Assembly (NCBI GenBank): GCA_016699205.1
Contig: CP064964.1
Coordinates: 780,001 to 812,000 of the forward strand
Origin: Candidatus Saccharimonadota bacterium
GTDB taxonomy: Bacteria; Patescibacteriota; Patescibacteriia; 2-12-FULL-60-25
Length of the DNA: 32,000 nucleotides
Reading direction: 5' to 3'
Shown: in pieces, positions 1 through 20,889 of the stretch
How the letters are laid out: each line of letters begins with the position of its first letter
Numbering within the stretch: the stretch's first letter is position 1
Position numbers and translations under genes: made by a program
The notes under the pieces: model-generated
What the model saw: only the letters and a program-made list of their open reading frames with translations
Databases searched by the model: none
What the model was told of the DNA's origin: nothing

Positions 1-1660
1 AGTTACCTTCACCAATGCCACCGGCACCAATACGACTTCCACCAATCTTTTTGGTTCGAACCTCGGTTTCTCAAACGCTACAGGAACCTCTTTGAACACA
101 AACACGCTTAATGCCGGTTCTGTCACCTTCGGCACGGCAACGGTTTCAGGCCTGACGTCTCTCCAGAACACGACGCTAACAAATGGAACCTCGACGAACT
201 TTGCTTCAACTGGATTGCTTTCGTTCTCGACGGCAACGGGTACCCAGATTCTTGCGAATATTGGTACGTTCTCGACGGCAACCGTCATGGGCGTCGCTGT
301 GTGTTTGCAGAACGGTGTTGGTTGTCCGAGCGGTACGGTTCTTTCCGATACGCTTCAGTCGGTCACGGCTCGCGGATCATTTACAACAACGACGGTTCAG
401 TTCTTTGGCGGCCTCACCACTTCCAACCTCACCGCCACCGGAACGACCTCACTTCAGAACACCACGGCCACCAATCTCGCTTCGACTGGATTGCTCTCGT
501 TTGTTTCAGCGACTGGCTCTACGCTTAACGCCAACTTCGCTTCCTTCGCTTCTGCAACGGTCGCGGGACAGGGGATCTGTCTCCAGAACGGTGTTGGCTG
601 TCCTTCGGCTGCCGCTGAAGCCGATACCCTCGCTTCGGTCACGAACCGTGGAGCCTTTGCGACCACAACCCTCACGCTCTTCGGCGGCCTCACCACTTCC
701 AACCTTACCGCCACCGGAACGCTCTCGGTTACAGGCGTTTCCTCCCTTGCCGGCGTTACCTTCACCAATGCCACCGGCACCAATGCCACGACGACGAATT
801 TCTTTGCGACTAATCTCGGCTTCTCAAATGCTACGGGCACTTCTCTGAACGTGAACGCGTTGTCTGCTGGCTCGGCTGTGCTTGGCACGGTGACCGTTTC
901 CGGCTCTACCTCGCTTCAGAACACAACTCTCACGAACGGAACCTCAACGAACTTTGCTTCGACAGGACTTCTCTCGTTCTCAACCGCGACTGGTACCCAG
1001 ATCCTCGCGAATATCGGTACATTCTCGACTGCCACGGTTTCTGGTATCGCGGTCTGTCTCGCGAATGGCGTTGGTTGTCCGAGTGGAACGGTACTTTCCG
1101 ATACCCTCCAATCCGTCACGGCTCGCGGCAGCTTCACGACGACCACGGTTCAGTTCTTTGGAGGATTGAGTGCGTCGAATATTACCGCGACCGGAACCAC
1201 ATCGCTCCAGAACACCACTGCAACGAATCTTGCTGCTACTGGATTGCTTTCGTTTACTTCAGCCACGGGAACTTCGTTGAATTCAAATAATGCCGCGATT
1301 GGAATTTTGTCTTTTGGTAGCGCGACCGGTTCTACGCTTAATACGAATTTCGCATCCTTCGCTTCTGCAACGGTCGCGGGACAGGGGATCTGTCTCCAGA
1401 ACGGTGTTGGCTGTCCTTCGGCTGCCGCTGAAGCCGATACCCTCGCTTCGGTCACGAACCGTGGAGCCTTTGCGACCACAACCCTCACGCTCTTCGGCGG
1501 CCTCACCACTTCCAACCTTACCGCCACCGGCACGCTCTCGGTTACAGGCGTTTCCTCCCTTGCCGGAGTTACCTTCACCAATGCCACCGGCACCAATACG
1601 ACTTCCACCAATCTTTTGGTTCGAACCTCGGTTTCTCAAACGCTACAGGAACCTCTTTGA
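1..1660 (+). CDS. giant repetitive surface-fibre/adhesin-like protein, fragment 1 of 3 (5' end outside window; closed by a 1-nt frameshift)
   Basis: The frame with codons starting at nt 2 has no stop from the window edge to tga 1658-1660, so the gene starts upstream. The ttg at 92 used by the ORF track is an internal Leu codon in the recurring ...[13 protein letters not shown]... junction. It encodes T/S/N/G-rich ~250-aa modules with CLxNGxxC loops followed by DTLxSVTxRGxF. The stop appears only because the T-run at 1614-1617 is T4, whereas the identical sister copies at 48-52 and 3118-3122 have T5. Confidence 0.85.
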   Translation, partial: VTFTNATGTNTTSTNLFGSNLGFSNATGTSLNTNTLNAGSVTFGTATVSGLTSLQNTTLTNGTSTNFASTGLLSFSTATGTQILANIGTFSTATVMGVAVCLQNGVGCPSGTVLSDTLQSVTARGSFTTTTVQFFGGLTTSNLTATGTTSLQNTTATNLASTGLLSFVSATGSTLNANFASFASATVAGQGICLQNGVGCPSAAAEADTLASVTNRGAFATTTLTLFGGLTTSNLTATGTLSVTGVSSLAGVTFTNATGTNATTTNFFATNLGFSNATGTSLNVNALSAGSAVLGTVTVSGSTSLQNTTLTNGTSTNFASTGLLSFSTATGTQILANIGTFSTATVSGIAVCLANGVGCPSGTVLSDTLQSVTARGSFTTTTVQFFGGLSASNITATGTTSLQNTTATNLAATGLLSFTSATGTSLNSNNAAIGILSFGSATGSTLNTNFASFASATVAGQGICLQNGVGCPSAAAEADTLASVTNRGAFATTTLTLFGGLTTSNLTATGTLSVTGVSSLAGVTFTNATGTNTTSTNLLVRTSVSQTLQEPL

Positions 1661-3165
1661 ACACAAACACGCTTAATGCCGGTTCTGTCACCTTCGGCAC
1701 GGCAACGGTTTCAGGCCTGACGTCTCTCCAGAACACGACGCTAACAAATGGAACCTCGACGAACTTTGCTTCAACTGGATTGCTTTCGTTCTCGACGGCA
1801 ACGGGTACCCAGATCCTCGCGAATATCGGTACGTTCTCGACTGCCACGGTTTCTGGTATCGCGGTCTGTCTCGCGAATGGCGTTGGTTGTCCGAGTGGAA
1901 CGGTACTTTCCGATACCCTCCAATCCGTCACGGCTCGCGGATCATTTACAACAACGACAGTTCAGTTCTTTGGCGGCCTCACCACTTCCAACCTCACCGC
2001 CACCGGAACGACCTCACTTCAGAACACCACGGCCACCAATCTCGCTTCGACTGGATTGCTCTCGTTTGTTTCAGCGACTGGCTCTACGCTTAACGCCAAC
2101 TTCGCTTCCTTCGCTTCTGCAACGGTCGCGGGACAGGGGATCTGTCTCCAGAACGGTGTTGGCTGTCCTTCGGCTGCCGCTGAAGCCGATACCCTCGCTT
2201 CGGTCACGAACCGTGGAGCCTTTGCGACCACAACCCTCACGCTCTTCGGCGGCCTCACCACTTCCAACCTTACCGCCACCGGAACGCTCTCGGTTACAGG
2301 CGTTTCCTCCCTTGCCGGCGTTACCTTCACCAATGCCACCGGCACCAATGCCACGACGACGAATTTCTTTGCGACTAATCTCGGCTTCTCAAATGCTACG
2401 GGCACTTCTCTGAACGTGAACGCGTTGTCTGCTGGCTCGGCTGTGCTTGGCACGGTGACCGTTTCCGGCTCTACCTCGCTTCAGAACACAACTCTCACGA
2501 ACGGAACCTCAACGAACTTTGCTTCGACAGGACTTCTCTCGTTCTCAACCGCGACTGGTACCCAGATCCTCGCGAATATCGGTACGTTCTCGACTGCCAC
2601 GGTTTCTGGTATCGCGGTCTGTCTCGCGAATGGCGTTGGTTGTCCGAGTGGAACGGTACTTTCCGATACCCTCCAATCCGTCACGGCTCGCGGATCATTT
2701 ACAACAACGACAGTTCAGTTCTTTGGCGGCCTCACCACTTCCAACCTCACCGCCACCGGAACGACCTCACTTCAGAACACCACGGCCACCAATCTCGCTT
2801 CGACTGGATTGCTCTCGTTTGTTTCAGCGACTGGCTCTACGCTTAACGCCAACTTCGCTTCCTTCGCTTCTGCAACGGTCGCGGGACAGGGATCTGTCTC
2901 CAGAACGGTGTTGGCTGTCCTTCGGCTGCCGCTGAAGCCGATACCCTCGCTTCGGTCACGAACCGTGGAGCCTTTGCGACCACAACCCTCACGCTCTTCG
3001 GCGGCCTCACCACTTCCAACCTTACCGCCACCGGCACGCTCTCGGTTACAGGCGTTTCCTCCCTTGCCGGAGTTACCTTCACCAATGCCACCGGCACCAA
3101 TACGACTTCCACCAATCTTTTTGGTTCGAACCTCGGTTTCTCAAACGCTACAGGAACCTCTTTGA
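1657..3165 (+). CDS. giant repetitive surface-fibre/adhesin-like protein, fragment 2 of 3 (internal, bounded by two 1-nt frameshifts)
   Basis: It has the same module sequence as fragments 1 and 3. It lies in the -1 frame relative to fragment 1 (start positions 92 mod 3 = 2, 1657 mod 3 = 1). After the G3 run at 2889-2891 (G4 in sister copies at 571-574, 1384-1387 and 3641-3644) the translation turns into P/R/S-rich nonsense ([19 protein letters not shown]...) and stops at 3163-3165. Its ttg start is again the internal SLNTNTL Leu codon. Confidence 0.8.
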
Positions 3166-6100
3166 ACACAAACACGCTTAATGCCGGTTCTGTCACCTTC
3201 GGCACGGCAACGGTTTCAGGCCTGACGTCTCTCCAGAACACGACGCTAACAAATGGAACCTCGACGAACTTTGCTTCAACTGGATTGCTTTCGTTCTCGA
3301 CGGCAACGGGTACCCAGATTCTTGCGAATATTGGTACGTTCTCGACGGCAACCGTCATGGGCGTCGCTGTGTGTTTGCAGAACGGTGTTGGTTGTCCGAG
3401 CGGTACGGTTCTTTCCGATACGCTTCAGTCGGTCACGGCTCGCGGATCATTTACAACAACGACGGTTCAGTTCTTTGGCGGCCTCACCACTTCCAACCTC
3501 ACCGCCACCGGAACGACCTCACTTCAGAACACCACGGCCACCAATCTCGCTTCGACTGGATTGCTCTCGTTTGTTTCAGCGACTGGCTCTACGCTTAACG
3601 CCAACTTCGCTTCCTTCGCTTCTGCAACGGTCGCGGGACAGGGGATCTGTCTCCAGAACGGTGTTGGCTGTCCTTCGGCTGCCGCTGAAGCCGATACCCT
3701 CGCTTCGGTCACGAACCGTGGAGCCTTTGCGACCACAACCCTCACGCTCTTCGGCGGCCTCACCACTTCCAACCTTACCGCCACCGGAACGCTCTCGGTT
3801 ACAGGCGTTTCCTCCCTTGCCGGCGTTACCTTCACCAATGCCACCGGCACCAATGCCACGACGACGAATTTCTTTGCGACTAATCTCGGCTTCTCAAATG
3901 CTACGGGCACTTCTCTGAACGTGAACGCGTTGTCTGCTGGCTCGGCTGTGCTTGGCACGGTGACCGTTTCCGGCTCTACCTCGCTTCAGAACACAACTCT
4001 CACGAACGGAACCTCAACGAACTTTGCTTCGACAGGACTTCTCTCGTTCTCAACCGCGACTGGTACCCAGATCCTCGCGAATATCGGTACGTTCTCGACT
4101 GCCACGGTTTCTGGTATCGCGGTCTGTCTCGCGAATGGCGTTGGTTGTCCGAGTGGAACGGTACTTTCCGATACCCTCCAATCCGTCACGGCTCGCGGAT
4201 CATTTACAACAACGACAGTTCAGTTCTTTGGCGGCCTCACCACTTCCAACCTCACCGCCACCGGAACGACCTCACTTCAGAACACCACGGCCACCAATCT
4301 CGCTTCGACTGGATTGCTCTCGTTTGTTTCAGCGACTGGCTCTACGCTTAACGCCAACTTCGCTTCCTTCGCTTCTGCAACGGTCGCGGGACAGGGGATC
4401 TGTCTCCAGAACGGTGTTGGCTGTCCTTCGGCTGCCGCTGAAGCCGATACCCTCGCTTCGGTCACGAACCGTGGAGCCTTTGCGACCTCAAGTGTCACGT
4501 TGTTTGGAGGGTTAACGGCTTCGAATTTCACTGCCACAGGAACTGCCTCGCTCCAGAGCACGACGGCTACAAATTTGGCAGCAACGGGACTCCTCTCATT
4601 CACTTCAGCGACAGGGACGACTCTTCGTGCGAATACTGCCGTCATCGGACTCCTGACTTACGGCAACGCCACAGGCGCCACACTTAACGCTAATGTGCTT
4701 TCTGCAACGACCGTTACTTCAACGGCGATGTTCGTGAACGGAGTTGCTGTTTGTCTTGCTAACGGCACGAATTGTTCGACGGCAGGTCTTGATACCCTCC
4801 AATCCGTCACGGCTCGCGGCTCCTTCACGACGACGACGGTTCAGTTCTTTGGCGGATTTGTTGCGGCCTCATCTAGTGTTACCGGAACGTTTGTCGTCGT
4901 CGGATCTTCTTCCTTGCGTAATGTCGACTTTACGGTTGCGACGGGTACAAGTGTTACAACCACCAACCTTTTTGGCACGAATCTTTTCTTCACTGGTTCG
5001 ACGGGTACAACGCTCGCAGTCACTCGTGGAACGTTGGGCAGCTCTACAGCGACCAATTTGTTTGTTGTCAATCTTGGCTTTATTGGATCTACGGGAACCA
5101 ATCTTCTGGCTACTGGATCCGTATCTACTACTAATCTTTTTTCAAATGCAGCCACCTTTGCAACGGCGACTGTTGCGGGACAGGGGATTTGTCTTTCCAA
5201 TGGCGTTGGCTGCCAATTTACGAGTACGGTTGGTCTCGATACGCTCCAGTCGGTCGTGGCTCGCGGAGCTTTCACCACCACGACGGCACAGTTCTTTGGC
5301 GGTCTTTCGACGAGCGATCTCACCGTAACATCGACCCTTTTGGTTACAGGCGTTTCCTCCCTTGCCGGCGTTACCTTCACCAATGCCACCGGCACCAATG
5401 CGACGACGACGAATTTCTTTGCGACTAATCTTGGCTTCTCGAGTGCTACCGGTGTTACCTTGATTTCCAACAACCTTACGGCAAACACCGCTTCTTTTAC
5501 GACGGCTACGGTTGCAGGAATCGCGGTATGTCTTGCTAACGGATCATTCTGTCCTCCGTCCGTTACGCCGAATTTACAAGCCGTAACTAATGTCGGAAAT
5601 GTTACGACAAATACGATTCAGTTTGCTGGAGGTACATCGACTGCTAATTTCTTTGTTCAGCGAAACATGGGTGTTGGTACATCAACTGGTTCGTTGACGA
5701 CGCGTCTTGCTCTTCAGTCATCTTCTACAAATTCAGAAGTGTTTCGTGTCTACAATACGTCTTATCGACCGATTCTCGCACTTGCAGAGGATATTTCCGG
5801 AAATGGACAGTTTATTTTGCGAGACTCGTCGGGTAATACGAGGGCAGAAATTTATGGTGCTCCAAATGGCTTCATGAATTTGTATGATTCGACCGGTGGT
5901 ACGGATTTCTCCTTCTTTTCTGGAAATGATAGTTATATCAACACAGGAGCATTCTTTGGTATTGGTACAAGCGTACCGAGCAGTACGCTGCATGTTGTCG
6001 GAGGAACGATTTTGCAGGGGAATACGACGGGTACCAATGTTACGTCAACAAACCTTTTTGCTACAAATATTGGATTTATAACAGCAACGGGTACCCAGAT

Positions 6101-9100
6101 CCTCGCAAACATCGGTACATTCTCTACGGCGACGGTTTCTGGTGTCGCTGTCTGTCTTGCGAACGGTGTTGGTTGTCCGAGCGGAACGGTGCTCTCCGAT
6201 ACCCTCCAGTCCGTTACAGCTCGCGGAAGCTTTACGACGACCACGGTTCAGTTCTTTGGAGGATTGAGTGCATCGAACCTCACCGCCACAGGTACGACCT
6301 CACTTCAGAACACGACGGCAACCAATCTCGCTTCGACTGGATTGCTCTCGTTTGTCTCGGCGACCGGCTCTACGCTTAACGCCAACTTTGCTTCCTTCGC
6401 TTCGGCTACCGTTGCCGGACAGGGGATCTGTCTTCAGAACGGCGTTGGTTGTCCTTCTGCCTCAGCTGAAGCTGATACCCTCGCTTCGGTCACGAACCGT
6501 GGAGCCTTCGCGACTTCATCTGTCACCTTGTTTGGAGGGCTAACGGCTTCGAATCTCACTGCCACAGGAACCACATCGCTTCAGAGTACGACGGCTACAA
6601 ATTTGGCAGCAACGGGACTCCTCTCATTCACTTCAGCGACAGGGACGACTCTTCGTGCGAATACTGCGGTTATCGGACTCCTGACTTACGGCAATGCTAC
6701 AGGTGCAACGCTTAACGCTAATGTACTTTCTGCGACGACCGTTACTTCAACGGCGATGTTTGTGAACGGTGTCGCTGTCTGTCTTGCGAATGGAACGAAT
6801 TGTTCGACGGCAGGTCTCGATACCCTCCAATCCGTCACGGCCCGCGGAAGCTTTACGACGACCACGGTTCAGTTCTTTGGAGGATTGAGCGCGTCGAACA
6901 TCACCGCCACCGGAACGACATCTCTCCAGAACACCACCGCTACGAATTTCGCTTCGACTGGATTGCTCTCGTTTGTTTCAGCGACTGGCTCTACGCTTAA
7001 CGCCAACTTTGCTTCCTTCGCTTCGGCTACCGTTGCCGGACAGGGGATCTGTCTTCAGAACGGCGTTGGTTGTCCTTCTGCCTCAGCTGAAGCTGATACC
7101 CTCGCTTCGGTCACGAACCGTGGAGCCTTCGCGACTTCATCTGTCACCTTGTTTGGAGGGCTAACGGCTTCGAATCTCACTGCCACAGGAACCACATCGC
7201 TTCAGAGTACGACGGCTACAAATTTGGCAGCAACGGGACTCCTCTCATTCACTTCAGCGACAGGGACGACTCTTCGTGCGAATACTGCGGTTATCGGACT
7301 CCTGACTTACGGCAATGCTACAGGTGCAACGCTTAACGCTAATGTACTTTCTGCGACGACCGTTACTTCAACGGCGATGTTTGTGAACGGTGTCGCTGTC
7401 TGTCTTGCGAATGGTATTAATTGTACAAATGTTGGCCTAGACACCCTACAGTCCGTGACGGCCCGAGGATCGTTTACGACAACGACCGCACAATTCTTTG
7501 GCGGTTTTGTTGCCGCTTCTTCATCCGTAACGGGAACATTTTCCATCTTTGGAGGTGACGGTACCACCGCTGCTGCACCAACGGCATTCCAAGCGCACGG
7601 AGGTACCGGAGGTATTTTAGGGACGACGGGATTCGCGGGAGGCGCGCTGACGTTGACAGGTGGCACAGGTGCCAGTACGACCTTACTCACTGCGGGTGGA
7701 CAAGGTGGATCACTCAATTTTATTGCTGGAAACGGTGGAGGAGCAGGGGCTGCACTTGGTATCGGAGCTACAGGAGGCGGAATCAATTTAACGGCTGGCA
7801 ACGGATCTTTAGGTGGTCTTGGAGGAGCAAATGGTAACGGTGGCAATATTACATTAAATCCTGGAGCGGGTTTTGGAACAGGTGCAGTAAATGGAAATAT
7901 TATTCTTGCGAATTTGAGAGGAAGTGTCGGAATTGGAACGACGAATCCGTTAGCAAAACTTGAGGTCCAAGGTGTTGTCTCATCGACCGGATTACTTGTT
8001 GCTTCGGATGCTGCTATTAATATTCCATCTGTTATTAAGGGTTTTGAGGGGCAAACGGCTAATTTGACTGAATGGAGGAATGCATCAGGCACACCATTGC
8101 TTGCCGTTACTGCGAGTGGCAGCTTGTCGTTTCTTACACCTACCGGAACGATTGTGATGGTATCGACAGGTACGCTGAATATTTTAGCCGGTACGAGCAC
8201 GGCGCTCTCGATGAGATATTTGAATGATAAATTCGGAGCGGCGTTGAATGCCGGTGCTTTCATGGACCGCAACTCGGCACTCCAAGAAGAATTTAATAAG
8301 CAGCGAACGGCTATTGCCGCTGATACCACAGGTGCTGCAGGCGCTGCATTTGGTGATGGAGGCGGTTGGGGTGTTTATGAAAATGGAACCTGTAATGTCA
8401 CGGCTTTGGCAGATACGGTGAATGGCATTATGCGCTTGGCGAAGTCTACCTTTGGCGGTGACGGCTGTTTGGTGATGATGGATGAAGCTTTGAATAACCC
8501 AAGAAGCATTTTTGATGCGGACAATTTGCCGGTGCTTCTCATGAAGATTCGGCCGAGTGCTATTGGAACAAATACGGATTATATTTACTCCGGTTTAGGT
8601 GACTCGACGGATGCTTTGCTTGCCGCCCCGACCAACTTTATCGGATTCGGAAACAGCGGTTCTACGACATGGGTCGGTTTGACCCGAAGCGCTGGAGCCC
8701 AGACGCAAGTCACTTGTACGGGCCAAACAATTTCTACGGCGAACTTCGCCCTGCTTATGGTCGAGGTCCGTTCAGCTACGGATGTCCGTTTCTTTGTTGA
8801 TAACGATGTGACGAACGGGGTTGACTTCGTTGAATGTGGAACGGGAAGCCAGACAAATATCCCGACCATTGCTCTTGCGCCGCAAATTCACTGGAATGAT
8901 GGTGCTGGCGATGCGACGACCAACTTGGATGTCGACTTTTTCCGTGCTTGGCAGGACGACGCTCCGGAAGAAGGTGGTAGTACGACAACGACTCCGAATT
9001 TCTACAGCATGTCGACTTTGGCGCAGTATTTCCCTGCGGATGACGTGAATTTGGTGCCAGGAACCGTGGTTTCCATTGACACGACTGCTACAAGTATCAA

Positions 9101-12100
9101 AGCCATCCCGACATTTGCCCCTTATGATCCAAATTTCTTGGGTGTTGTTGTGAACGATCCTGGTTTGATTCTTTCCAACGGAACGTTTGATGGTGTTCGT
9201 GTGGCTTCCCAGGGTCGTGCGCTCGTTATTGCGTCTAATGAGAATGGCGATATCGTGACGGGAGATGTTTTGACTACGGCATCGACAACTGGCGCTCTTA
9301 TGAAGGCTACGGGTCCTGGATTCGTTGTGGGTCGAGCGTTGCAACCACTTACAAGCTCCACGGGAACGATCGTTGTTCAGCTACAGCCGAATCACTACAC
9401 GCCTTCTGCTAATGGTGTTTACAGTATTCTGAGTGCGACGGGTTATTTGGCGGTTGGTGATCATGAGCTTCCGGCGGTTGGGTCTTCTGCTATCGCGCAG
9501 TTTGCTGCAACTACGGATACGTATCTTCAAGTGAATTTGCAGAACTTCTCAACCGGTACGAGTGCGTCATCGGATTATGTGGCGACTGCGGATAATGGAG
9601 ATGACTCGAGCTATTATGTTGACTTTGGTATCAATGGATCTGGCTATGATAATCCGGATTTTTCGATCGTTGGGGCGAATGACGGGTATCTGTATGTTCA
9701 TGGAGGCGACCTCGCTCTTGGTACTGCTAGCTCGGCAGATATTCTCTTTCATACGGGCGGTACGCTCGCAGAGAATGAGCGCATGCGCGTAACAACGGAT
9801 GGTTTGGTTGGTATCGGTACAAGCGTACCTTCATCGACCTTGCATGTGGTTGGTGACACGATTTTGGGGGTACTTACGTTTTCTCATGCGACGGGATTAG
9901 GCTTAATGACAACGAACCTTGTCTTTACCGATGCTACAGGAACAAATCTTGCGTTTACGGGAACGTTTAGCGGTGCGAATGCCGTCTTTACGGCGGTTAC
10001 AAGTACGTCGATCGCGACAACGAATCTCTTGGTTGATGGCAAGCGCGTGTGTTTGGAGGATGGAACCAATTGTTCCGTTGGATCAGCTTACAGCGCCTCG
10101 TCTTCCGCATCGGTTTCTGTTGGTGCGGAAACGGAATTGCTTGTCGTAACAACCACGCCAGCCTTTGCATCCAATGCGGTTTGGATTTCTGCTGATGCGC
10201 GTGCCGTGAACGCGAGTGGAGCTGATGGAACAACGGTGACATTGCGTATCCGCCGTGGCGATACGTGTGCGGCCGGAGTGCAGGTTGGCGTTGATCGTAC
10301 GGTTGATGTTGGTGTATCCGATTCCGATACGATTTCGACCAGCTTTGTCGATATGCCTGGGACGGCCAATGCGACGGCCTATCGTTTGTGCGCGCTTGGT
10401 AGCGGAGGAACACCTTCTGTGACCAATCGTTCAATGACCGTGCAGTTGATTAAGCAAGGCGCTGACTTGGGTGAAGTCTATTATTCTATTGATCGTACGA
10501 TTGATCCGGGTACGGTTGTCTCTATTGATGAGAACGGTGAGGCTTTGGTGAAGAAGTCAGGAGTGCCTTACGACGACCAGATGATCGGTGTTATTTCTAC
10601 GCGTCCAGGTCTTTTGCTTGCCGAGCATCCGCGTACGGATGGTGCGCCGGTTATCGTTGCTCTTTCCGGCCGTATTCCGGTGCGAGTGACAAAAATGAAT
10701 GGCGTGATTCGTGCCGGGGATTACCTTACGAGTTCACCGATTCCTGGTGTGGCCATGAAGGCGACCAAGGCCGGTCATATCTTGGGTCAGGCTTTAACCT
10801 CGTTTGACGGTGACGACGAGGGCGAGGTCATGGCATTTATCAAGAACGGTTTCTGGAATGGCCAGAGTGTTGCTGCGGATCGTGCGCAAACAGGCCGTTC
10901 GGTTCTCATGAACACGCTCGCCTCGATCGACGTATCGACGATTGACGTTTCTTCAACGGTATCCATGCTGAATGCTGATCGTATCGTGGCCTCCGAGGAT
11001 GTGGTTGCTAAATCATTGATCGGCGAGAGTTTAGCTGTCCGCATGATCGATAGCTTGAGCGGCGATTTGCGTTTGCAGATTGGCACAACCGGTACCCTTG
11101 GTCTCTATGTTGAAGGACAAGAGAATCCGGTGTTGAGCGTGGATGGAAGCGGTGTGTTGATCTTGCGTTCATTGGCGGCTGAGTATGTGAGTTCAACGCG
11201 CGTGACAACGGATCAATTGATTGCCGTTGATATCCAGTCGCCGACGATTGATTCCTTGCGCATGACGCTCGGAATGGCGACTACGTCATTAACGGATTTA
11301 ACCAATCGTGCCACTGAGGTCACGGGTGTTTTGGAGGAACTTGAGCGTCGAATGAGCGAACTCGCTTCATCCGTGAGCGCTACAGGCACATCGGATTCCG
11401 GCCTTGATGTTGATCAGCTGCGCGTGCAGGAGGGGATGGAGGTAGTGGGTGAGATTCGTGCTCCTGGTGGATTGCGCGTTGATACGCTTACGAGTATTGG
11501 TGATTTGATGACGATTGCCGGAAACGTTGAGTTTACTGGTCCTATTATGGTTAATCGTGATACGGCTGGATTTGCGGTGATTACGACTGGTATGAAGCGT
11601 GTGCGTATCGCCTTTGATCGACCGTATCTCGTGAAACCGGTTGTGCAGGCGACGGTAACTTTTGAGACGCTTGAAGAAGAGGATCCAGGTCAGGAGGAGC
11701 TTCGCATCCAGAGTTACTTTGATCAGAACATGCGTTATGTTGTGACACGTGTCACAAAGGAGGGCTTTGAGATCTGGTTTGATAAGCCGGTGCAGCAGGA
11801 TGTTCGGTTTAGCTGGCTCGCATTGGCTCCGAAGAATGCCGAGGAGGTTTTGTCTACGGATATGAACGATGCGCCAGTCCCAGAACCTGAACCGATCCCT
11901 GAGCCTGCTCCAGAGGTGACGCCGGAACCAGAGCCGGAAGTTGTAACGGAACCTGCTCCAGAGCCGATCCCTGAGCCGGAACCAGAAACACAGCCAGAAC
12001 CAGAAACAGCGCCTGAGCCCGAACCGATTCCCGAGCCTGTTCCAGAGGTAACGCCGGAACCAGAGCCGGAAGTTGTAACGGAGCCTGCTCCAGAGCCGAC

Positions 12101-12149
12101 TCCTGAGCCGGAACCAGCTCCAGAAGCACCAGTCTCCAATCCTTCTTAA
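3162..12149 (+). CDS. giant repetitive surface-fibre/adhesin-like protein, fragment 3 of 3 (2,995 codons, true C-terminus)
   Basis: This is one uninterrupted ORF. From 3162 to about 7500 it carries further T/S/N-rich modules with 13 CLxNGxxC-type loops. It has three [FV]GIGT[ST]xPxxxL[HE]V motifs (5955-6002, 7926-7973, 9807-9857), which I associate with tail-fibre-like proteins. A Gly-rich GGxGG region spans 7551-7900 and a possible jelly-roll/LamG-like region spans about 8210-8960. Two paralogous beta domains lie at 9009-9397 and 10458-10863. A heptad-like segment at about 11255-11390 is followed by a possible H-type-lectin-like end at 11559-11835 and a PEPEP tail at 11875-12146. The function is inferred only. 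Confidence 0.9.
6198..7439 (+). repeat. 2-copy tandem duplication, period 621 bp (207 codons), inside the giant gene
   Basis: The [10 protein letters not shown] codon string starts at 6198, 6819 and 7440. The core 6371-6790 matches 6992-7411 almost perfectly (for example, aggggatctgtcttcagaac at 6421 and 7042). A diverged third copy lies at about 4490-4800. Confidence 0.9.
11875..12146 (+). repeat. Pro/Glu-rich low-complexity tail with internal 132-bp (44-codon) duplication
   Basis: gaggtgacgccggaaccagagccggaagttgtaacgga at 11913 recurs as gaggtaacgccggaaccagagccggaagttgtaacgga at 12045. The translation is [29 protein letters not shown], twice. Confidence 0.9.
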
Positions 12150-15659: not shown

Positions 15660-16541
15660 ATGTCCAAAGAAAATCCATTTTCTGGAAAACCTGAGGCGAG
15701 AGTTGAAAAGCGAGCTTCTAAGCTTACCGAGCAAAAAACAAATCTTTTGAAGCGTTCCAAGTGGGGCGGCTTGTTTGCTGGGATGATGGCTGTTGTAGGC
15801 GCTGCTAATGCAGCAGAAGCGCAGCAGCATCCTCGAGAGGGTGAGTTTCATATGGACTTTGACTGGCGTTCTGTTTCTATGGCGGAGCTTAATCAAGAAT
15901 GGACGCAAGCGATGCAGATGCTTCGTTCGACTGATGATTTGCTTGAAGCGGATGTAAACCGCCGTATGGTGTACGAGGGCTCGGTCGAGGAGCAAATTGA
16001 CACGGTTAACTTTAGACGGCGAGAACCCCAGGAGGAGGTGCATCTTGGTGACACGCAGGCGTTACGCGGTTTGGAAGGACATGTTATTGAGATTTCCTCC
16101 GTGAGAGGTTCAGTTTATCGTACGTTGAGAGAAGGTGACCGAGCCCAGAGTTCCGCGGTTAATCATCTTGGATTCCGCGTCTTTGATGTCTCTCCTGCGG
16201 CTTCTCGGCGTTTAGAGGCTACGGGGCGTCATCTCATCGAGGATTATGAAGCGGAAACCGCTGATCAGGCGCTTGCTTTGGTGATGGAAGAGGTGGGAAG
16301 AGCTGGGGCGGAAGAAGGCCATGTTCGGGAACTGTACCAAGCGAGAGAAGGAGCCCGTGTCGACCAGCTCTCGGTTAACACATATCTCGAGCATAGTTAT
16401 TTGTCTAATGTACACATCGGTGAAATGCAGCAGCTTCCAAATGGGCACTTCCGAGTACATGTAGAGGCTGACTTGCTTCGAGAGGCTCCTCCGGAACCAG
16501 TGTCAGCACCCGCCCCTACGCCTGAGCCGCTTCAATGGTAG
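15660..16541 (+). CDS. hypothetical membrane-anchored acidic protein (no family recognised)
   Basis: ATG start and 293 codons. It has a basic N-terminus, one hydrophobic segment (WGGLFAGMMAVVGAANAA), an E/D/R-rich body and a Pro-rich end (APPEPVSAPAPTPEPLQW). Terminators flank it on both sides. Confidence 0.6.
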   Translation: MSKENPFSGKPEARVEKRASKLTEQKTNLLKRSKWGGLFAGMMAVVGAANAAEAQQHPREGEFHMDFDWRSVSMAELNQEWTQAMQMLRSTDDLLEADVNRRMVYEGSVEEQIDTVNFRRREPQEEVHLGDTQALRGLEGHVIEISSVRGSVYRTLREGDRAQSSAVNHLGFRVFDVSPAASRRLEATGRHLIEDYEAETADQALALVMEEVGRAGAEEGHVRELYQAREGARVDQLSVNTYLEHSYLSNVHIGEMQQLPNGHFRVHVEADLLREAPPEPVSAPAPTPEPLQW

Positions 16542-18672: not shown

Positions 18673-20889
18673 ATGTATTTGAAACGGCTGGAAATCCAAG
18701 GATTCAAGACCTTTGCCCAGAAGACGGTTCTTGAGTTCAAGCCCGTCGCTTCCGGTCGTCGAGGTGTTACGGCGATTGTCGGGCCAAATGGCTCGGGTAA
18801 ATCCAATGCCGCTGATGCTATCCGTTGGGTTATGGGCGAGCAGAGCTTGAAGCTGCTGCGCGGCAAGAAATCGGAAGATGTGATTTTTTCTGGTTCCGAT
18901 AAACGCAGCCGCAGCGGTTTTGCCGAGGCGACCATGGTGCTTGAGAATGAGGGCGAGGACCGCACCGGACTTGATGTGGGAGAAATTGCGGTCACACGCC
19001 GTTTGTATCGCGATGGTCAGTCGGAATATGAAGTGAATCGACAGAGCGCGCGTTTGCAGGACGTGGCACTTTTGCTTGCGCAAGCAGGAATCGGCCAGCG
19101 CACATATTCCGTTATCGGTCAGGGTATGATCGACCATGTACTGGTCGCAAGTCCGACGGAGCGCAAGGAATTTTTTGATGAAGCTTTTGGTTTAAAACCA
19201 TTCCAGCTCAAGCGACAGAGCGCTTTGAATAAGATCGATGAGAGTAAAAAGAATTTAGGGCAGACGGAATCGCTTTTGAATGAGATTGGTCCGCGGCTTG
19301 CGACATTGGAACGTCAGATCAAGCGCCTCGCAGAACGCGATACGCTGCAGGCTGAGTTACAGAGTCTTGAACGAGCTTATTACGGTTCCGAGTGGCATCA
19401 GATCGATGGCGGAATCAAAGCGGCAACATCCAAGCTTGAGCAAGCGCGTGTTGAGCAGGCAAAGCTGGTTGAAGTTGCCAATAAACTTGAAGCGGAATTA
19501 TCCGAGATGGAAAAGGCGACGCCGCGCGGAGATGGTTTTAAAGAGCTGCGCGCCAAGCTGGATGCGGTGGCAGCCGAGAAGGCGGCTTTGCGTGAACGTG
19601 AATTGAAATTGGAGACGCAGAAGGCTGTTGCTGCCGTGCGCGCGGAGAAGCCATGGGCGCCGCTTCCATTATCGAAGATCATTGAGGCGATTGAGAGCTT
19701 GCGAGAAGCGCATGAAGATTTGGTGAATGAGCTTGGTAAAGCGAGTCCTGATATCGCCAAAGCCAAAAAGTTGGCGGAATCGTTGCGTCTTACGAGTGTT
19801 GATTTGGCCGGCAAATTACAGCGTCCAGCACCGGAGCCGGAGCAGAGTAAGTCAGAGATGGATCCTGAGGTTGAGAAGGAATTGAAAGAAATCGCCAAGG
19901 CTTATGCGGATTTGGCCGAGCAGACAATGAAAGCCAATGCCGAGCTTGAGTCTTGGAATCGCGGAGAAGATGAAAAGCGTTCGCATATTTTTAAGACGCA
20001 GCATGAGCTTTCTCAAAAACGTGCAGAAGCCCAGAGTTCGGAGCGGAGAGCTGGCGATGTATCGATTGAACTCGCGCGTTTGGAAACGCGACGCGATGGA
20101 TTGCTCGCGGATCTGCGTTTGCATGCGCCGACGCTTGAACAAGAATTAGCCGCTCTTGCTGTTAAGGCTGATAAGCCGGAGGCTGACGCGGCTGCACGCA
20201 TGCAAAAGCTGCGTTCCCAGCTGGAGTGGATTGGCGGTATTGATCCGGAAACGATCAAGGATCATGGAGAAACCAAAGAGCGTTTTGAGTTTTTATCCAA
20301 ACAGATCGAGGATTTGCGACAGGGAATTCAGGCGCTTGATTTGGTTGTCGCAGAATTGGACTCAACGATTCGTGATCGGAGTGCGACAGCGTTCACAAAG
20401 TTGAATCGCGAGTTTTCGAGTTACTTCAAGAAATTGTTCAATGGCGGTGAAGCATCTCTTGTTGAGATGCAGCCTGAGCCGGAGACAGATGAAGAAGGAA
20501 ATATTATTTCCGAGCCCGCAGAAGGAGAAGTGGCTGGTGTTGATATTCAAGCCACGCCGCCTGGGAAACGTTTCAAGTCGATTGCGCTTCTGTCTGGCGG
20601 TGAACGTGCGCTGACTTCCATCGCCCTTATTTGTGCGATCATGGCGACCAATCCATCGCCGTTTGTGGTGCTTGATGAAGTGGATGCGGCGCTTGATGAA
20701 AGTAACTCACGCAAGTTTGCGGAGATTATTGGAACACTTGCCGATAAGACGCAGTTTGTTGTTGTGACGCATAACCGCGCGACGATGATGCAAGCATCCG
20801 TCCTATACGGCGTAACGATGGGGGATGATGGGGTTTCGCAATTGCTGTCTGTGGACTTTGCGGATGTGGAAAAGCTCCGTAAGAATTAG
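18673..20889 (+). CDS. smc: SMC-family ATPase, unusually short (738 aa) and lacking a recognisable hinge domain
   Basis: The N-terminal head (MYLKRLEIQGFKTFA...IVGPNGSGKSNAADAIRWVMGEQSLKLLRG...DVIFSGS) and C-terminal head (LSGGERALTSIALICAI...VVLDEVDAALDESN...VVVTHN) are canonical SMC. Only about 400 heptad-rich residues lie between them, and there is no Gly-rich hinge or RATFLPL-type motif. Confidence 0.85.
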   Translation: MYLKRLEIQGFKTFAQKTVLEFKPVASGRRGVTAIVGPNGSGKSNAADAIRWVMGEQSLKLLRGKKSEDVIFSGSDKRSRSGFAEATMVLENEGEDRTGLDVGEIAVTRRLYRDGQSEYEVNRQSARLQDVALLLAQAGIGQRTYSVIGQGMIDHVLVASPTERKEFFDEAFGLKPFQLKRQSALNKIDESKKNLGQTESLLNEIGPRLATLERQIKRLAERDTLQAELQSLERAYYGSEWHQIDGGIKAATSKLEQARVEQAKLVEVANKLEAELSEMEKATPRGDGFKELRAKLDAVAAEKAALRERELKLETQKAVAAVRAEKPWAPLPLSKIIEAIESLREAHEDLVNELGKASPDIAKAKKLAESLRLTSVDLAGKLQRPAPEPEQSKSEMDPEVEKELKEIAKAYADLAEQTMKANAELESWNRGEDEKRSHIFKTQHELSQKRAEAQSSERRAGDVSIELARLETRRDGLLADLRLHAPTLEQELAALAVKADKPEADAAARMQKLRSQLEWIGGIDPETIKDHGETKERFEFLSKQIEDLRQGIQALDLVVAELDSTIRDRSATAFTKLNREFSSYFKKLFNGGEASLVEMQPEPETDEEGNIISEPAEGEVAGVDIQATPPGKRFKSIALLSGGERALTSIALICAIMATNPSPFVVLDEVDAALDESNSRKFAEIIGTLADKTQFVVVTHNRATMMQASVLYGVTMGDDGVSQLLSVDFADVEKLRKN

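Follow-up and report, generated by a model that had tools for sequence, protein, structure and literature searches.

The window analysed here, a stretch of 32,000 nucleotides (nt; contig CP064964.1, positions 780,001 to 812,000), carries at positions 1-12149 of its forward strand the 3'-terminal 12.1 kb of a giant gene, which encodes a modular protein rich in Thr, Ala, Gly, Ser, Leu and Asn that is predicted to be an extracellular fibre, and the present work concerns a short cassette that recurs in the repeat array of this gene. Two copies of this cassette, viz. 161-286 and 914-1039 (126 nt each), have the same translation, [42 protein letters not shown], while more than half of their codons differ. 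We consider it most probable (roughly 0.8) that these are old paralogous sub-modules maintained by purifying selection, whose synonymous sites have drifted passively within an array evolving by birth and death. According to this explanation, the two stretches would be old copies of a cassette of 42-44 amino acids (aa) in the fibre repeat array, whose separation would date from about the time when the species parted from the closest sister species that has been sequenced. The synonymous sites of the copies would since have drifted almost to saturation, with purifying selection removing essentially every amino acid change. In the course of the birth and death of the array, super-units comprising both DNA versions of the cassette (A+B) would have been duplicated (the recently triplicated ones being still DNA-identical) and other copies lost, and recombination or gene-conversion tracts would have produced mosaics and carried the cassette into new module contexts. 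The synonymous divergence would then be a passive by-product of age and no adaptation.

Synonymous divergence and protein constraint in the module set

A direct comparison of the first copy (H1, 161-286, + strand), which by haplotype assignment represents DNA version A, with the second copy (H2, 914-1039, + strand), which represents version B and differs by 1 nt from positions 9048-9173 of the related contig L040 described below, shows 24 nucleotide differences in 23 of the 42 codons. Every one of these changes is synonymous, exactly as stated in an initial annotation of this DNA, including the examples acg/aca, cta/ctc and ttg/ctt that it gave. Together with the two preceding residues (TS), which are identical as well, the shared peptide run amounts to 44 aa. 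Of the differences, 1, 0 and 23 fall at the first, second and third codon positions, and they consist of 15 transitions and 9 transversions that do not share a common direction, due to which a directional mutation process similar to repeat-induced point mutation was rejected. The Nei-Gojobori method, applied to this pair, gives S=35.3, N=90.7 and a proportion of synonymous differences (pS) of 0.65, corresponding to a Jukes-Cantor synonymous distance (dS) of about 1.5; the nominal proportion of nonsynonymous differences (pN) of 0.011 is an artefact of averaging the two paths for TTG/CTT. If synonymous codons are drawn at random according to the codon usage of the genome, then 26.6-28.2 +/- 3 of the 42 codons are expected to differ, and the observed 23, together with the pS value, upholds the claim that the synonymous divergence is near-saturated without amino acid change. 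In this stretch 28% of the possible single-base changes are synonymous, so that the chance of 24 changes all being of this kind is 0.28^24 or about 6e-14, and when 24 substitutions were placed at random 200,000 times, the peptide was never kept.

The distribution of these differences also bears on the possibility that a second function at the DNA level, viz. an overlapping open reading frame (ORF) or a structured RNA, is conserving the peptide. Long ORFs in alternative frames do overlap this region, e.g. 183-848 (+) and 454-888 (-). However, a function of this kind would preserve nucleotides, whereas the third positions are nearly randomised and only the protein in frame 2 has been kept, and alternative ORFs are an expected by-product of the stop-poor composition. 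Overlapping ORF or RNA constraint was therefore rejected, because the synonymous sites are nearly randomised, and we consider it to be hardly conceivable.

The constraint observed in this pair extends to the other modules of the gene. The repeat region is made up of modules of 92, 112-115 and 159 aa, each of which ends with the family-wide motif ATVxGxx(I/V)CLxNGxxC...DTL(Q/A)SVTxRGxFxTTxxxxFGG, and the 42-aa cassette is carried by six half-units of 251 aa (H1-H6). When H1 and H2 are compared over the whole half-unit, pS is 0.46 and pN is 0.07, and in windows of 30 codons over the first 175 codons pS is 0.52-0.74 and pN is 0.015-0.21. Over the same 175 codons, 152 residues are identical, 78 of them encoded by different codons, and the differences at the three codon positions number 26/12/93. 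A matrix of 18 modules gave pN of 0-8% at pS of 0-54% for pairs of the same type, and pN of 22-37% at pS of 54-78% for pairs of different types. The ratio of nonsynonymous to synonymous divergence (dN/dS) is about 0.05-0.1 throughout the module set. The check by module pairs that was proposed with the initial annotation hence yields values far below 1 well beyond a single stretch. Further, the stretch is not an isolated exception, as its peptide is found in at least five DNA versions in three genomes and related giant genes behave alike. The strong purifying selection that was postulated for this seemingly low-complexity sequence is thus supported by the same-type pairs (pN 0-0.08 at pS up to 0.54). 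With 23 aa differences in the first 175 codons, an identical run of 44 aa is unusual to a moderate degree only (P=0.018 under shuffling of positions). The module is constrained in general, and the 42-aa stretch is the part of it that is conserved best and no lone anomaly.

Three syntenic relatives were compared with the window. The first of these, a metagenome-assembled genome (MAG) of Candidatus (Ca.) Uhrbacteria (L002), has a 4824-aa orthologue with an N-terminal signal/anchor, and its giant gene is followed by those for LytR_C, SpoIID, ClpP and DHH proteins; the pS values of its flanking genes are 0.41-0.71. The second (L039, JGI Ga0558118_11911) has an intact orthologue of 4272 aa, which also possesses an N-terminal signal/anchor and has the same neighbours as in L002. 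Between the window and L039 the flanking proteins are 99.5% (ClpP, pS 0.30), 88% (SpoIID, pS 0.60) and 70% (LytR_C, pS 0.76) identical. In the third relative (L040, the 917-kb contig JGI Ga0558117_00022) the gene is fragmented by frameshifts, and its flanking genes show pS of only 0.005-0.06, which indicates that it is from the same species as the window. Between species pS reaches a plateau of 0.72-0.78, as compared to 0.65 for cassette A versus B. Based on the calibration provided by the flanking genes, the A/B split is of interspecies age, and the A-B divergence (pS about 0.6) equals in depth the species splits between the window and L039 and between the window and L002.

At least five DNA versions of the cassette are present in the window, L040 and L039 (viz. 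winA; winB, which is 1 nt from L040_9048; L040_10147; L040_7599; and L039_10341), and they show pairwise pS of 0.25-0.82 with no more than 2 aa differences. A sixth version, represented by three DNA-identical copies in L039, has 6 replacements. When changes in the six versions were counted by parsimony on a neighbour-joining tree, at least 76 synonymous and 11 nonsynonymous events were required (uncorrected omega about 0.06), and most of the replacements fall on the L039_7680 branch. The conservation of the cassette is comparable to that of ClpP and far exceeds that of the rest of the giant protein, the C-terminal part of which is 62% identical to that in L002 (pN 0.26). One example of a cassette in a different setting is provided by L039_10341, which is 97.6% identical but whose flanks are of unrelated module types, with pN of 0.37 upstream and 0.68 downstream. 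Another copy, L040_7599, is A-like upstream (pS 0.15) and diverged within and after the cassette (pS 0.45-0.48). The occurrence of a conserved cassette between unrelated flanks in L039 indicates shuffling, i.e. that the cassette would behave as a discrete sub-module, which has been moved between contexts by recombination. Other module types show similar conservation, as their comparison with the relative L017 gives 92-95% aa identity at pS of 0.45-0.49. In the giant genes of the more distant relatives L002, L004, L018, L008, L009, L027 and L006, identical peptide runs of 25-60 aa are present in which 50-80% of the codons are different, and module pairs within these genes have pN of 2-9% at pS of 0.44-0.67.

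History of the array and the recombination-suppression idea

The two DNA haplotypes can be followed codon by codon through the array, with A being present in H1 and H5 and B in H2, and all further copies are on the + strand. The cassette copy of H3 (1726-1851) is an A/B mosaic, which is 7 nt from A and 17 nt from B; its half-unit follows version A through codon 78 and B in codons 82-119, and is then A-like. The copy of H4 (2479-2604) is of version B, 1 nt from the H2 copy and identical to L040 9048-9173, and that of H6 (3984-4109), also of version B, is the same as H4 over the first 175 codons; both of these half-units follow B to codon 119 and are A-like beyond. The H5 copy (3231-3356) is of version A and lies inside a 1020-nt exact repeat of window 1-1020. 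The C-terminal part, [18 protein letters not shown], is all that a partial seventh copy (6012-6137) shares, and this copy has a different head. The exact DNA repeats in the gene measure 1020 nt (1=3071), 932 nt (1960=3465), 626, 428 and 426 nt, and a further one of 335 nt occurs at the adjacent half-unit offset of 753 (1804=2557). The presence of two haplotypes together with these exact repeats leads to the conclusion that the array is an old A/B pair, whose 1.5-kb super-unit has undergone a recent triplication, with tracts of exchange between versions. The mosaics of H3, H4 and H6 (about 1567-4577) appear as tracts of gene conversion or unequal crossover between versions with a divergence of 19-25%.

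Similar events are seen in the relatives. At L039 7680-9689 three identical variant copies occur at a spacing of 942 nt beside an anciently diverged fourth copy at 10341, and this independent recent triplication mirrors that of the window. In L040, where the module order differs from the window and no exact version A is found, there are 3 copies of the cassette (5705-11220) versus 6 in the window (1-5164), the window being 5'-truncated and L040 being of low quality; this difference is due either to rapid restructuring of the array or to assembly collapse.

The initial annotation also proposed that DNA-level divergence between adjacent modules may be favoured because it suppresses recombination. 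In its strongest form this proposal implies that the synonymous recoding is itself selected, as it lowers recombination or slippage and stabilises the array (a natural "codon scrambling"). Every relative that was examined has near-identical peptide runs with 50-80% different codons, the closest module pairs in relatives have pS of at least 0.44, and versions A and B occur alternately in the array, all of which would be in accordance with such selection. However, a high pS in MAG relatives is expected from the bias of short-read assembly, and the alternation of A and B results from the triplication of the A+B super-unit. Further, exact repeats on the kilobase scale (1020, 932, 626, 428 and 335 nt) exist in the same gene, also between adjacent half-units, and L039 contains three DNA-identical tandem copies. 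The proposed comparison of adjacent with distant modules likewise failed to support this idea: the nearest same-type modules have a mean pS of 0.26 versus 0.28 for distant ones, the correlation between module distance and pS (Spearman +0.34, P=0.03) is opposite in sign to that predicted by suppression, and the adjacent same-type neighbours at modules 637 and 888 are DNA-identical. Hence, adjacent modules are not more diverged and long identical repeats are not absent, as would be expected of a recoded repeat. In H3 the change from A to B takes place within the 42 codons of the cassette; a divergence of 19% is thus no bar to exchange, and this mosaic shows that exchange is still occurring. Lastly, the A/B pS lies within the range of single-copy flanking genes between species, and there is no excess divergence to explain. 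In view of these results, we regard selection for recoding as unlikely, and the age of the paralogues accounts for the divergence.

A different alternative is that of concerted evolution at the protein level, in which the copies are kept alike, by homotypic trimer packing or a shared partner, while their DNA has diverged. Over 84 aa, versions A and B in the genome of the window share 96-100% of their residues at pS of 0.64, whereas the best counterparts to these 84 aa are 79% (L018), 64% (L001) and 62% (L002) identical, and all four L039 copies have Ala where all copies of the window and L040 have Ser (FATATV vs FSTATV). However, this shared state involves only one lineage-specific residue, and a duplication after speciation explains the Ser/Ala difference equally well. 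Additionally, L039_10341 keeps 41 of the 42 residues across species, which is simple conservation, and the low identity across genomes is accounted for by old module types having been amplified differentially. Due to this, concerted evolution appears quite improbable. It is similarly unlikely, though a little less so, that the cassette is a discrete shuffled functional element (serving trimer registry or the binding of a partner or host), with ClpP-like invariance, selection for homotypic matching, and recoding favoured for stability.

For the explanation which we prefer, viz. that of old paralogues under purifying selection, a number of points need to be weighed on the opposite side. As most of the relatives are short-read MAGs, in which repeats identical in DNA cannot be assembled, their uniformly high pS is partly an ascertainment bias. 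In distant relatives the counterparts of the cassette are weaker (about 75-79% in L018 and about 60% in L002), and there the CLxNGVGCP...[22 protein letters not shown] motif is better conserved than the cassette; such extreme constraint is thus lineage-restricted. As pS is near saturation, the ages and topology of the versions are beyond resolution, and duplication before or after speciation are both possible. The structural rationale given below is putative, as the AlphaFold2 monomer of a half-unit was of too low quality (predicted local distance difference test score, pLDDT, of 43.7) and the modules match no family in Pfam, NCBIfam or PHROGs. Lastly, the window appears to derive from a long-read assembly that has indel errors in repeats, and its mosaic copies might in principle be artefacts of the consensus.

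The giant gene, its neighbours and its host

The giant gene is at least 4049 codons in length, with its 5' end outside the window and its stop codon at 12149. In the ORF list it appears as three pieces (92-1660, 1657-3165 and 3162-12149), and as the database protein P0008 corresponds to the ORF 3162-12149, the breaks are present in the deposited assembly. The first break (1614-1617, + strand) has T4 where the sister repeat at 47-51 has T5, and the second (2889-2891, + strand) has G3 where the sister repeats have G4. Restoring one base at each break yields an uninterrupted frame of 4049 codons, and both breaks fall within recently duplicated and otherwise identical repeats. The 19 neighbouring ORFs, when compared with Pfam, have either a full-length domain match or no match and none of them looks truncated. 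Relative to the window, 12 indels were counted over 8 kb of the sister assembly L040, in which the gene is shattered. Based on the location of the breaks in recent repeats, the intact neighbours and the L040 indels, the two homopolymer breaks are probably long-read consensus errors and less probably real frameshifts. The 4049-codon reading frame itself can be taken as real, judging from its continuity after repair and from the full-length orthologues.

These same features, viz. two homopolymer breaks in recent repeats amid 19 untruncated neighbours, and the indels and shattered gene of L040, could suggest that the versions and mosaics as a whole are an artefact of mis-assembly, mis-polishing or the merging of strains. 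However, sequencing errors are not confined to third positions and cannot all be synonymous, and version B is found at 99-100% identity in the independent assembly L040, with more versions in L040 and L039. An artefact is therefore very unlikely, and the versions are better understood as old paralogous copies.

The repeat region (aa 1-2540, window 2-7620) is rich in Thr (22%), Ala, Gly and Ser (12% each), Leu (10%) and Asn (8%), and in its 2540 residues there is no Lys or Trp and charged residues account for less than 3%. A conserved Cys pair (CLxNGxxC), which is possibly a disulfide, is present in every module. Near the 3' end of the gene, a tandem repeat (11892-12109, + strand; an imperfect DNA repeat with periods of 72 and 18) encodes a Pro/Glu-rich (PEPEP) C-terminal tail, and a similar tail is found in L002 and L039.

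The neighbouring genes encode LytR_C, SpoIID/CARDB, ClpP, DHH, RbfA, SMC-like and S16 proteins, and further TrmD, a P-type ATPase, TsaD, TsaE, a T2SSE ATPase and tRNA-Glu. Between the SpoIID-like gene and clpP there is a 293-aa ORF (15660-16541) without a Pfam match, whose counterpart in L039 is 292 aa in length and 79% identical, while in L002 the same interval contains no ORF of at least 150 aa. The SMC_N-family protein encoded at 18673-20889 is only 738 aa in length, and canonical bacterial SMC proteins are much longer. As the Pfam match spans residues 2-722 of the 738 aa, the coiled coil predicted for this protein must be short.

All homologues of the modules that were found come from MAGs of Ca. 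Uhrbacteria and other Patescibacteria. It is a rare family, as 1.84 billion proteins include only 70 representatives of it at E<=0.001, and the best module matches in scans of contigs had 59% identity (genome contigs) and 79% identity (metagenome contigs). The host would be a tiny, uncultured Ca. Uhrbacteria-like bacterium (Patescibacteria, or candidate phyla radiation, CPR).

Probable fibre nature and comparison with known systems

A search of the PDB sequences with phmmer identified one local segment of about 115 residues that matches 8OND, the structure of Bd2133, with E values of 2.6e-6 to 9.8e-7, and weaker matches of the C-terminal part to 8OML, 8OJN and 8OL4. The matching segment (about 9513-9860, + strand), a Bd2133-like trimeric beta-helix, includes the motif ERMR..G.VGIGT..P...LHV, and the element G.VGIGT..P...L.V recurs elsewhere in the giant protein. 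Homology to a trimeric beta-helix (beta-prism) stalk is thus present locally. In the L039 orthologue a Peptidase_S74 domain is found at residues 3559-3610 (L039 16119-16274; 39.9 bits, cutoff 22), while the window protein has no Peptidase_S74 match at its C-terminus or elsewhere even at E<=1. The C-terminal regions of the two orthologues (window 10500-12149 versus L039) align only in patches, which suggests that tip domains may have been swapped. Searches of the modules and the C-terminal region against Pfam, NCBIfam and PHROGs gave no significant family and only a low-complexity PARP match, and a PDB sequence search with H1 gave no match. The AlphaFold2 monomer of H1, based on a 12-row alignment, has the pLDDT of 43.7 noted above and is unusable. 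Enrichment of N-glycosylation sequons was rejected as a reason for the constraint, as N-x-S/T occurs 71 times versus 68.2 +/- 6.3 in shuffled sequences.

The Bd2133 match, the S74 domain of the orthologue, the N-terminal signal/anchor seen in L002 and L039 (the window being without the 5' end), the PEPEP tail and the envelope-related neighbours, when considered together, point to a surface fibre, and the protein is probably a very long, beta-helical fibre that is predicted to be trimeric. Its sequence rich in Thr, Ser, Asn, Gly and Ala would then not be disordered but tightly packed, and nearly every residue may be buried or involved in contacts between chains, which would account for the strong constraint.

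The evolutionary pattern described here is already known and represents textbook purifying selection, while the protein family is uncharacterised; in the literature no description was found of this Uhrbacteria family, or of synonymous repeat recoding in CPR giant genes. The significance of these results is that a low-complexity-looking, Thr/Ser/Asn-rich sequence of a CPR giant protein is a precisely constrained and probably structural module, which argues against masking or ignoring regions of this kind. This gene also illustrates in detail the evolution of giant repeat genes, as old diverged versions, recent identical duplications and mosaic exchange are all seen in it, and it brings to attention a rare fibre family, locally related to the Bdellovibrio and phage tail fibres considered below, which may mediate the attachment of Uhrbacteria to other cells. 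Two puzzles are posed by the cassette, viz. that its conservation is ClpP-like within the species group but only 60-79% in distant relatives, and that a lineage-specific Ser/Ala state is shared by saturated paralogues, whether due to post-speciation duplication or otherwise.

Among known systems, polyubiquitin consists of tandem units that are identical in protein but synonymously different, due to strong purifying selection together with birth and death, and the cassette copies resemble it in being protein-identical repeat units with many synonymous differences. However, ubiquitin is globular and universally conserved, whereas the unit here is a lineage-restricted segment of a fast-evolving fibre. 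The surface proteins of the periscope type are length-variable and have near-identical DNA repeats, and the recent triplication (up to 1020 nt exact) and the copy number of 6 versus 3 in L040 (possibly an assembly collapse) may be similar to these. Unlike them, the array described here also holds anciently diverged versions, and a rod structure and regulated length variation are only putative in this case. In the proteins Giant1-5 of Apilactobacillus kunkeei, dS is several-fold above dN and locally reaches up to about 1, mosaic recombination tracts are present, and subtypes that escape homogenisation keep a low dN (PMC12863079). The protein described here is likewise a very large surface protein with purifying selection and recombination mosaics, but the Apilactobacillus comparisons were made between strains and genes, whereas those here are between intragenic modules, and both the fold and the lineage differ. 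A further parallel is with the mosaic adhesive trimer (MAT) fibres of Bdellovibrio bacteriovorus (Bd2133, Bd3182 and Bd1334), whose tips follow an S74/NS74 mosaic principle (PMC10769870). The window protein differs from the MAT fibres in being 4-5 times longer (>4000 aa versus about 1000 aa), in having a body made of Cys-pair modules of 92-159 aa (CLxNGxxC...DTLQSVTxRG...FGG) with no match in Pfam, PDB or PHROGs, and in belonging to a CPR bacterium, where trimerisation and adhesion are only putative. However, like the MAT fibres and the phage tail fibres with S74 chaperones, it matches the beta-helix domain of Bd2133, and it has a long body resembling a fibre and, as seen in the orthologues, a signal/anchor at the N-terminus. 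As in the mosaic MAT tips, S74 is found in one orthologue (L039) and is undetected in the other, due to which the window protein would be, at best, an NS74-like variant of this principle.

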